Source: a virus
Taxonomy: Duplodnaviria > Caudoviricetes
Length of the DNA stretch: 64,000 bases
Virus record (IMG/VR): IMGVR_UViG_3300042507_004106
Direction: 5' to 3' (one strand)
Shown here: positions 7,703 through 9,248 of the stretch, piece after piece
How positions within the stretch are numbered: position 1 is the first letter of the stretch
Layout of the letters: the number at the start of each line of letters is the position of its first letter
The notes under the pieces: model-generated
The model's input: only the letters and a program-made list of their open reading frames with translations
The model's database searches: none
What the model was told of the DNA's origin: nothing
Made by a program: the position numbers and the translations under genes

Positions 7703-7774
7703 TCAACCGATTGACGGTGCCGTTAAAGCAACTTCTTGAGTAGAAGCAGCAGCAAGGTCAAGTGGGAAGTTGTG
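7703..7774 (-). CDS. psbA: psbA exon 3
   Basis: 72 nt translating to [23 protein letters not shown], the D1 C-terminus. Confidence 0.95.
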   Translation of the reverse strand, partial: [23 protein letters not shown]

Positions 7775-7983
7775 CTTCCATTTTGGACTATATCTTCACC
7801 ATACTCTTTATGAGGTTAGGTGTCGGACGCTAATGGTGTATTACATAGGGCGCTCCCTAAACCACCTAGTCTCTGAACCTTCCCTAGAAGCGTCTAGGGC
7901 TTGGATGCTGATTGCCCGTTAGGGTTTCCAGCAGTTCATCCGAAGTTTACCTTGTCTTTTCAGGCAAGGGCGCCCACAAATCG
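7775..7983 (-). mobile_element. group I intron 2 of psbA (209 nt, no ORF)
   Basis: Exon ends in U, intron ends in G. P AACUGCUGGAA, Q AAUCAGCAUCC, R GUUCAGAGACUAG, S AAGAUAUAGUCC; P3 UCGGAUG/CGUCCGA; P1 CGCU/GGCG with U.G; P10 UUGUG/CACAA. Confidence 0.93.
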
Positions 7984-7999
7984 AGCGTTGCGTTCATGC
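7984..7999 (-). CDS. psbA: psbA exon 2 (16-nt micro-exon)
   Basis: G CAT GAA CGC AAC GCT supplies exactly the missing (M)HERNA and restores frame. Confidence 0.92.
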
Positions 8000-8253
8000 C
8001 GTTTTTGTTACCGTAAGAACTCTTTATTTCTTACTTCTTACTGTCGCCAGTAAGACCAGACTATCTCTTCATCCGTTCTGGATGCTGGGCATTCGTGGGT
8101 AGATTATTGTTGGAACTCACTACCTAGTCGTTAGACCTGCCGAAGAACCTATGTCCTCTTCGGATTGGTACGGGATTGTCTACTTGAGAGTTTCCCCGTT
8201 TAACCCAGTTTCGTCAAGGAATATTCCTATTCCAGGGTGACTACATTTAAGAA
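8000..8253 (-). mobile_element. group I intron 1 of psbA (254 nt, no ORF)
   Basis: P1 GUGAU/GUCAC with U.G; P10 AUGU/GCAU; P UAAACGGGGAA, Q AAUCCCGUACC, R GGUCUAACGACUAG, S AAGAGAUAGUCU; P3 CUGGGU/GCCCAG; P9 CUUACUG-GCGA-CAGUAAG; terminal G. Confidence 0.92.
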
Positions 8254-9248
8254 ATCACTTCCATTCCCAGTCCTGCACGGTTAAGTACATCAGCCCAAGT
8301 GTTGATTACCTTGCCCTGACTATCAACGATACTTTGATTAAAGTTGAAGCCATTCAAATTGAAGGCCATCGTGGAAACACCAAGAGCGGTGAACCAAATA
8401 CCCACGACGGGCCAGGCTGCTAAGAAGAAGTGAAGTGAACGGGAGTTATTGAATGAAGCGTATTGGAAGATTAGACGACCAAAGTAACCGTGAGCAGCAA
8501 TTATATTGTATGTTTCCTCCTCCTGACCGAACTTGTAACCATAGTTCTGTGACTCATTCTCAGTGGTTTCACGAACCAGCGAGGAAGTAACCAGAGAACC
8601 GTGCATAGCACTGAACAGAGAACCACCGAAGACACCAGCAACTCCAAGCATGTGGAAGGGGTGCATCAGGATGTTGTGCTCTGCCTGGAACACAAGCATG
8701 TAGTTAAAAGTACCAGAGATACCCAGAGGCATTGCATCAGAGAAAGAACCTTGACCGAAAGGATAGACCAGGAACACTGCAGAAGCAGCAGCAACAGGTG
8801 CAGAGTATGCAACACAGATCCAAGGACGCATACCCAGGCGGTAGGAAAGTTCCCACTCACGACCCATGTAGGCGTAGATACCAATCAGGAAGTGGAACAC
8901 AACCAGTTGGAAAGGACCACCGTTGTAAAGCCACTCATCTAGGGAAGCAGCTTCCCAGATAGGATAGAAGTGAAGACCAATGGCGTTGCTTGAAGGAATC
9001 ACAGCACCAGAGATGATGTTGTTTCCGTACATGAGTGAACCAGCAACGGGTTCACGGATACCATCAATGTCCACAGGAGGTGCGGCAATGAAGGCAACGA
9101 TGAAACAAATGGTAGCAGCAAGCAGGCAGGGGATCATCAGAACGCCAAACCAACCCACATAGAGGCGATTGTCAGTCGAAGTAACCCAGTTGCAGAACTG
9201 TTCCCAAGTATTTGATTGTGATTTTTGACGTGAAATTGTAGCAGTCAT
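8254..9248 (-). CDS. psbA: psbA exon 1 (photosystem II D1); spliced CDS 995+16+72=1083 nt, 360 aa
   Basis: D1 sequence up to ...RAGLGMEV plus AT; the ORF track's 'IS*' is read-through into intron 1. Confidence 0.97.

Follow-up and report, generated by a model that had tools for sequence, protein, structure and literature searches.

Two dissimilar predicted group I introns around a 16-nt micro-exon in the psbA gene of an uncultured freshwater cyanophage

This study concerns psbA, the gene for D1, in a stretch of 64,000 nucleotides (nt) from the IMG/VR virus record IMGVR_UViG_3300042507_004106 (Duplodnaviria; Caudoviricetes), hereafter the window. The window very probably derives from an uncultured freshwater T4-like cyanophage in which two different group I introns, both of the IA type and lacking an open reading frame (ORF), entered psbA in independent events; they share a 16-nt exon, and both would be removed to make D1 with its manganese (Mn) ligands. 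Splicing of both introns in vivo, and their self-catalysis, we infer from structure models and comparison of homologues. The gene is composed as follows.

9248..8254, minus strand: psbA exon 1, 995 nt, encoding D1 residues 1-331 and two nucleotides of the Met332 codon (canonical Met331)
8253..8000, minus strand: group I intron 1, 254 nt, without an ORF
7999..7984, minus strand: micro-exon GCATGAACGCAACGCT, 16 nt
7983..7775, minus strand: group I intron 2, 209 nt, without an ORF
7774..7703, minus strand: psbA exon 3, 72 nt including the stop codon TGA, from H337 through the C-terminal extension

This layout (a 254-nt intron, a 16-nt exon, and a 209-nt intron) reproduces base for base the original prediction, which had been made from the letters of the window; of the coordinates given there for the arrangement, 7703-8260, the start holds and the end is loose, 8260 being a position 7 nt within exon 1. 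Read on the minus strand, the last bases of exon 1 are ...GGAATGGAAGTGAT, down to 8254; intron 1 starts with TTCTTAAATG and ends with AAAAACG, intron 2 starts with CGATTTGTGG and ends with AATGGAAG, and exon 3 begins with CACAACTTCC and runs to TGA. Both introns are preceded by U (8254 and 7984) and have G as the last base (8000 and 7775). The boundaries of intron 2 can slide by one base (C/C) with the mRNA unchanged, and their exact position was set because of this U/G rule.

Joined by script, the three exons yield a 1083-nt coding sequence (CDS) and a D1 of 360 amino acids (aa), as had been proposed. Exon 1 matches solved D1 chains with a phmmer E-value of 1e-205, the alignment reaching the splice point, and V331 of the window is aligned to V330 of these chains; thus, the codons of the micro-exon are those of canonical H332, E333, R334, N335, and A336, preceded by the third base of the canonical Met331 codon. 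The alignment to solved chains thereby bears out the claim that H332 and E333 are encoded by the micro-exon. We take both residues to be ligands of the Mn4CaO5 cluster, which is established knowledge on photosystem II. Intron 1 is inserted at 995/996, between the second and third bases of the Met331 codon, and intron 2 at 1011/1012, between Ala336 and His337. As anticipated for ORF callers, a plain ORF scan of the window reports a truncated psbA, a 333-aa ORF at 9248..8247 reading into intron 1. The computed products of other processing routes differ at the C-terminus: retention of intron 1 gives 333 aa ending with ...MEVIS, removal of intron 1 alone gives 344 aa ending with ...HERNARFVGALA, skipping of the micro-exon shifts the frame to ...MEVITTSHLTLLLLLLKKLL followed by a stop, and only full splicing provides H332 through A344.

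The whole 64-kb window was scanned with 4227 Rfam families, including Intron_gpI (RF00028), with a gathering score of 50 bits. Both introns score above this threshold, far beyond chance, and match the full model (positions 1-253): intron 1 at 8258..8037 on the minus strand (56.2 bits, E = 1.4e-11) and intron 2 at 7993..7763 on the minus strand (66.7 bits, E = 1e-14).

According to the structure model, intron 1 has helices P1-P2, P3-P8, a P7.1/7.2-type hairpin, P9, and P9.1, with a GGAA loop on P2 and a GCGA loop on P9. Its P1 pairs GUGAU, ending at the splice site, with GUCAC (guide 8241..8237), with the U.G wobble at the splice site, and this whole helix is invariant in 18 sequences; its P10 pairs the guide AUGU (8246..8243) with GCAU, bases 1-4 of the micro-exon. 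Over 18 distinct homologues, 1224 out of 1224 cells of the 68-pair model are paired (100%), and sliding the partners as a control drops the pairing to 35-45%. Thirteen pairs have undergone compensatory changes, located in P2, P9, P9.1, and P10. The P10 covariation links the ribozyme to its exon: in related loci L012, L013, L016, L020, L032, and L033, exon GCAC occurs with guide GUGU, that is, the His codon CAC instead of CAT goes with G instead of A in the guide of intron 1, and two of these loci, L032 and L033, carry the tandem arrangement. The P10 pair at micro-exon base 4 is AU in 14 sequences, GC in three, and GU in one. The use of the first 4 nt of the micro-exon as the P10 partner of intron 1, suggested originally, thus stands on covariation. 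A 24-mer of intron 1 was found in 26 IMG/VR contigs.

In intron 2, P1 is formed by CGCU (micro-exon bases 13-16) and GGCG (guide 7974..7971), extended by two intron base pairs, and P10 by the guide UUGUG (7979..7975) and CACAA, the first 5 nt of exon 3. All 521 cells of this model are paired (521/521, 100%) over nine distinct copies, and there are nine compensatory pairs in P2, P5, P7.2, and P8, with four out of five P7.2 pairs swapped; the P10 guide and its exon partner are invariant in all ten copies and hence give no covariation signal. The psbA introns of S-PM2, S-SRM01, and S-CBWM1 share the core of intron 2, and in this wider family 95% of cells are paired, with 31 compensatory pairs. 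P1 in the wider family changes on both strands with the insertion site, the U.G pair being kept in 10 out of 10 cases, in agreement with the assignment of the last 4 nt of the micro-exon to P1 of intron 2 made in the original prediction. The S-PM2 psbA intron is a distant relative, with 82% identity to intron 2 over 77 nt (blastn).

Two further observations concern the junction of intron 2 with exon 3. A GGAAG/CUUCC hairpin at 7764-7780 of the window (minus strand) would hold the P10 target CACAA as its loop. The exon sequence CACAACTTCC is invariant in all ten intron 2 alleles, and alleles without intron 2 show synonymous variation at this place (CAT, AAT, TTT); either co-conversion or a structural role may account for the invariance.

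P7 (GACUA/UAGUC) is invariant in both introns, and all core helices of the structure models are 100% paired. Between the 5′ strand of P7 and the 3′ strand of P3, both models contain additional P7.1/P7.2 hairpins, by which subgroup IA is recognized, and this places both introns in the subgroup. In intron 1 this insertion folds as GGUAG...CUACC, and in intron 2 as GGUG...CACC around UAGGG/CCCUA, with four compensatory pairs. Taken together, the models and the covariation give both introns the U and G ends, P1 with its U.G pair, P3-P8, P7, and P10, in agreement with the group I features ascribed to them from the start (the boundaries, P/Q/R/S cores, P3, P1 with the U.G pair, and P10).

Related psbA loci were compared using a spliced-alignment script followed by inspection of junctions; sites of introns other than introns 1 and 2 are approximate. 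Relatives of three kinds were found at the exact predicted boundaries, namely, those with intron 1 only (many loci, e.g., L005, L015, and L019), those with intron 2 only (L030 and L045), and those with both introns and the same 16-nt spacer (L021 and metagenome contigs L031-L037). The junction pattern comprising the end of intron 1, the micro-exon, and the start of intron 2 occurs in seven metagenome contigs from different projects; since L037 is the L021 contig, at least six further independent assemblies contain the tandem form. The two introns are no more similar to each other than shuffled sequences (129 identical positions in the global alignment vs. 121 ± 4 for shuffles), and, as each is also found alone, their independent invasion, proposed in the original prediction from the difference of their sequences, is supported. 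The exons of the tandem loci are approximately 79-83% identical to those of the window, and the introns are 88-98% identical. Introns being far more alike than exons, we conclude that they have spread horizontally between diverged alleles, which is a signature of mobile introns.

The region after intron 1 is found in relatives in 16 distinct 16-nt versions, all of which encode HERNA; the variation is synonymous, except for one Met-to-Ile change at base 1. Thus, the micro-exon is translated in the frame of exon 1, and for this intron 1 must be removed precisely. The arrangement is not a twintron, as each intron occurs alone with an intact core, and the spacer codes for the conserved HERNA. Fourteen DNA sequencing runs, each from its own study, contain 75-100% of the words of the region, the runs best matching the stretch being lake-water and freshwater metagenomes. 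The nearest isolate is the freshwater cyanomyovirus S-SRM01, to which parts of a 20-kb stretch are about 80% identical. Neither intron was found in full in any isolate: megablast against 50,697 phage records gave exon matches only, and blastn gave core matches only.

Several observations weigh against the proposed removal and mobility of the introns. The first of them concern RNA, for which Logan contigs of runs X15-X19 were compared with positions 7400..8800 (likeness at least 90) and 8215..8400 (likeness at least 93). The contigs of four RNA libraries that cover the introns are unspliced or intron-containing only. One of them, from X15, corresponds to 7745..8113 and spans exon 3, intron 2, the micro-exon, and a part of intron 1 in the unspliced form; it may represent precursor RNA or contaminating DNA. 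No RNA-library contig joins exon 1, the micro-exon, and exon 3, although contigs cannot show absence, and no loose contig end at 8254 carrying the micro-exon was seen in runs X15-X19. Other such points are structural: the exon portion of P1 of intron 2 is merely 4 bp, and intron 2 lacks the P9 hairpin present in its relatives, Rfam filling the place of P9 with a hairpin between the last bases of intron 2, GGAAG, and CUUCC of exon 3. Finally, the window has no endonuclease ORF after psbA, its place being taken by a 102-aa ORF (7552..7244), which has no Pfam or PHROG match.

Two candidate splicing signals in the RNA data were set aside. An X16 contig contains a joint from 7711 to 7991 that skips 279 positions and carries 70 unaligned letters, for a net difference of 209; it fits a relative without intron 2, and the contig was not counted. 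Another contig of X16 stops at 8283, exactly 30 nt inside exon 1; this could hint at a graph branch at the 5′ splice site, and intron-less relatives explain it equally well.

The surroundings of psbA suggest how the transcript would be made. The psbD gene lies 3′ of psbA on the same strand and is uninterrupted, and psbA itself is framed by three elements.

9422..9450, minus strand: sigma-70-like promoter match TTGACG-17-TATACT upstream of psbA, a consensus match only
9289..9383, minus strand: PhotoRC-II RNA motif in the psbA 5′ leader (Rfam RF01717, 82.1 bits vs. a gathering score of 39)
7651..7674, minus strand: strong terminator-like hairpin (10-bp stem and then a run of T), 29 nt past the psbA stop codon

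Accordingly framed, psbA would be transcribed as one unit from the promoter-like site through the PhotoRC-II leader to the terminator-like hairpin. Each ribozyme would locate its own splice sites via its own guide (P1 and P10), so that the 16-nt exon would serve as the 3′ exon of intron 1 and the 5′ exon of intron 2. Intron 1 probably splices first and co-transcriptionally, once the first bases of the micro-exon have been made and before intron 2 exists; since just 8 nt lie between the P10 and P1 segments of the micro-exon, ordered splicing seems likely. Unlike P1/P10 guides of the two introns would favour inclusion of the exon over its skipping, as in engineered tandem introns (PMC10136302). 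Precise removal of both introns would then produce D1 with the C-terminal ligands of the Mn cluster. As both splicing events are needed for this form of D1, RNA processing could limit the phage contribution to photosynthesis during infection.

The RNA data could be read in another, rather unlikely way, in which the introns self-splice inefficiently unless helped by a protein cofactor of host or phage, or by certain conditions (light, energy state), so that D1 production is gated at the RNA level. The loss of P9, normally a stabilizer of the core, by intron 2 would be in line with this, as would the depth of the introns in the X15 RNA library, which is about the same as at the 3′ end of exon 1, contig depth being a poor measure. 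A precedent is the light-stimulated splicing described for the Chlamydomonas psbA introns. On the other side, the two cores are complete, with strong conservation; self-splicing is the rule for small IA introns of phages, and it is reported for the S-PM2 intron, related to intron 2, as well.

It is considerably less probable that splicing frequently takes out both introns along with the 16 nt, or frequently leaves one intron in place, much of the mRNA then encoding a D1 with an altered C-terminus. Exon skipping is indeed documented, for the 23-nt exon of orf142 of phage Twort, the 34-nt exon of Coxiella, and engineered tandem Tetrahymena introns (PMC10136302), as well as for the SIOphi terminase (PMC11878797). 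In the window, however, the loss of 16 nt shifts the frame, the variation of the micro-exon is synonymous, and the introns and their P1/P10 elements are unlike, which is the condition that suppresses skipping experimentally (PMC10136302).

It is very improbable that the introns have decayed to relics, leaving psbA a pseudogene truncated to 333 aa. This is what the ORF caller shows on its own, and spliced RNA was not found in RNA-library contigs. Relics, however, would not be expected to keep every modelled pair in all copies, with compensatory changes, nor the downstream exons in frame and under coding constraint, and the arrangement persists across psbA alleles that have diverged by about 20%. 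An assembly chimera of two single-intron alleles, both kinds of which do occur in the same habitat type, can practically be dismissed, since the exact junction is present in the seven metagenome contigs of different projects and in the IMG/VR contig L021, the 14 DNA runs holding the words of the region come from separate studies, and an RNA-library contig of another study spans both micro-exon junctions.

If, as we think, psbA contains two separately acquired introns, the question of their mobility arises; neither contains an ORF. In 16 relatives, psbA is directly followed by a free-standing ORF of 194-327 aa with a NUMOD3 motif (Pfam) and/or a match to an endonuclease PHROG, e.g., L015:2720-3304. 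This ORF likely represents a family of homing endonucleases associated with the 3′ end of psbA. Loci fetched via this ORF nearly always have an intron at 995, 1005, or 1011, and such association fits collaborative homing of the type described for the S-PM2 intron and the endonuclease F-CphI. The introns may thus have spread by endonuclease-driven homing, and they may also shield the site from homing endonucleases. The window itself has one endonuclease-like ORF elsewhere.

5352..5936, minus strand: endonuclease-like ORF, 194 aa, downstream of psbD (PHROG endonuclease, 1.6e-31; endonuclease VII, 4e-18)

No Pfam family was assigned to it, BLASTP showed no similarity to F-CphI, and in related loci the regions following psbA contain no homologue of it; its role as a mobility helper is possible but unproven.

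The psbA genes of freshwater phages contain a largely undescribed intron hot spot, of which the gene in the window is an example. Among the psbA genes compared, short exons of 14, 16, and 19 nt were found. In L008:6653-11260 (IMG/VR contig 3300042987_001812), psbA is broken by nine insertions of approximately 226-893 nt, eight out of nine with Rfam Intron_gpI matches above the gathering score. The ten exons, when joined, encode a 359-aa D1 with no stop, two of the script junctions being off by a few bases (KW instead of DG and NG); the tiny exons among them are 14 nt (..FQAEH, i.e., E189/H190) and 19 nt long.

The 19-nt exon, GCATGAACGNAACGCCCAT, belongs to a second tandem form, in which it stands between intron 1 and an intron at 1014/1015, the site of the S-CBWM1 intron (L008, L009, L010, L012, L023, L024, and L027). 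The P10 guide of this form co-varies with synonymous changes in the exon, AAAGU occurring with AACUUU and AAAAU with AAUUUU. In L011 and L018 (L018:1179-1447), an intron of the 1014/1015 type resides at 1024/1025, after TTCCCAT, and a 29-nt exon follows intron 1. This intron keeps the P1 guide GUGG, pairing with CCAU, and its P10 guide is rewritten to AAAUCUA, matching the new 3′ exon UAGAUUU; it looks like a natural retargeting, as expected of reverse splicing into the same 4-nt target. Yet another variant is a 258-nt intron at the site of intron 2, 1011/1012, in L026:12083-12340 (also in L054 and L055). Its core is 84% identical to intron 1, and its 5′ guide region AGATTTGTTGGTG resembles that of intron 2, which means that the locus has either a tandem pair of ribozymes of the intron 1 type or an intron that is a chimera.

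We tentatively suggest, as an idea that may well prove wrong, that, in freshwater cyanophages, an arms race is fought over the 3′ end of psbA, in which free-standing homing endonucleases aim at the codons of Mn ligands, and ORF-less introns (at 995, 1005, 1011, 1014, and 1024) shield the target sites by breaking them up. In that case, each of two introns 16 nt apart would add its own layer of immunity, directed against a different endonuclease, and micro-exons of 14, 16, and 19 nt would mark the lower limit for an exon shared by two ribozymes.

These alleles matter beyond their own biology: among phage auxiliary metabolic genes, viral psbA is the one usually given as the example, it is in wide use as a marker, and alleles split in this way will be overlooked or cut short by gene callers and in psbA surveys. 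The 16-nt exon provides a natural test of the minimal spacing of ribozymes compatible with correct splice-site choice, and natural variants (each intron alone, both introns, covarying guides, and the retargeted intron) make intron mobility and splice-site choice testable.

Elsewhere in the window, Rfam identifies a wcaG RNA motif at 27419-27523 (minus strand, 69.6 bits), and there are nine tRNA genes, mostly clustered (approximately 28375-33811, and 51208-51365 on the minus strand), as is usual for large cyanomyoviruses.

Compared with described systems, three things are new: where intron 1 is inserted, an exon of 16 nt, and the wider intron hot spot; psbA introns as such are known from S-PM2, S-CBWM1, and S-SRM01, and short exons between introns from Twort and Coxiella. 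The original prediction knew of no description of the double arrangement. For this micro-exon arrangement in psbA we found no published description either, an earlier mention being possible, as subscription papers were mostly outside the literature search; as for short exons between tandem group I introns in general, these are already known (Twort, Coxiella). The accompanying statement that S-PM2-like phages have a single psbA intron is outdated, given two annotated introns in S-CBWM1 and, by our analysis, three in S-SRM01.

In S-PM2 (and S-RSM88), the psbA group I intron is accompanied by the free-standing endonuclease F-CphI, and the two constitute a case of collaborative homing (Zeng et al., 2009, in the accounts given by PMC6083498 and PMC3984707). 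As in the window, this is a small ORF-less group I intron at the 3′ end of a cyanomyovirus psbA, its core is common with that of intron 2, and relatives of the window have an endonuclease-like ORF directly after psbA. Unlike the window with its two introns (995/996 and 1011/1012), S-PM2 has one, at 1005/1006 (Arg334/Asn335), and in the window no nuclease-like ORF follows psbA, the endonuclease VII-like ORF lying beyond psbD.

S-CBWM1 resembles the window in having two annotated psbA group I introns, the second at 1014/1015, 3 nt from the site of intron 2, but its introns are 363 nt apart. The psbA gene of S-SRM01 (L001, MW015081.1, 207378-209783) has three introns according to the alignment and two Rfam matches, namely, one of approximately 917 nt with an endonuclease ORF, one of 211 nt, and one of 207 nt at the S-PM2 site, and gives a complete D1 once they are removed. 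It is annotated as two partial D1 CDSs and an endonuclease, an example of how such alleles are fragmented, and one psbA intron is recognized in the genome paper (PMC8557907). In both S-CBWM1 and S-SRM01, introns are separated by exons of hundreds of nt, and neither phage has intron 1 or an intron at its site.

The closest parallels in architecture come from other genes. Introns 2 and 3 of Twort orf142 flank a 23-nt exon, and introns of the Coxiella burnetii 23S rRNA gene flank a 34-nt exon, while engineered tandem introns with differing P1/P10 elements yield exon inclusion only (PMC10136302); a small exon between tandem group I introns is also known in phiNIT1 (PMC11878797). The window shares with Twort and Coxiella the tandem group I introns around a very short exon that serves both ribozymes, the exon of the window being shorter (16 nt vs. 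the published phage and bacterial 23 and 34 nt) and its arrangement being known here from sequence. Whereas the introns of the Twort pair are near copies, those of the window are unrelated (their similarity is about that of shuffled sequences), their guides differ, and skipping would be out of frame. Fungal mitochondrial genes contain tandem group I modules and pseudo-exons, and neighbouring group I introns approximately 18 nt apart are found in Ophiostoma cob-201 (PMC12308204). Such tandem modules are organellar, usually contain ORFs, and are sometimes spliced as one unit, whereas each intron of the window also exists alone, and the spacer between them is true coding sequence.

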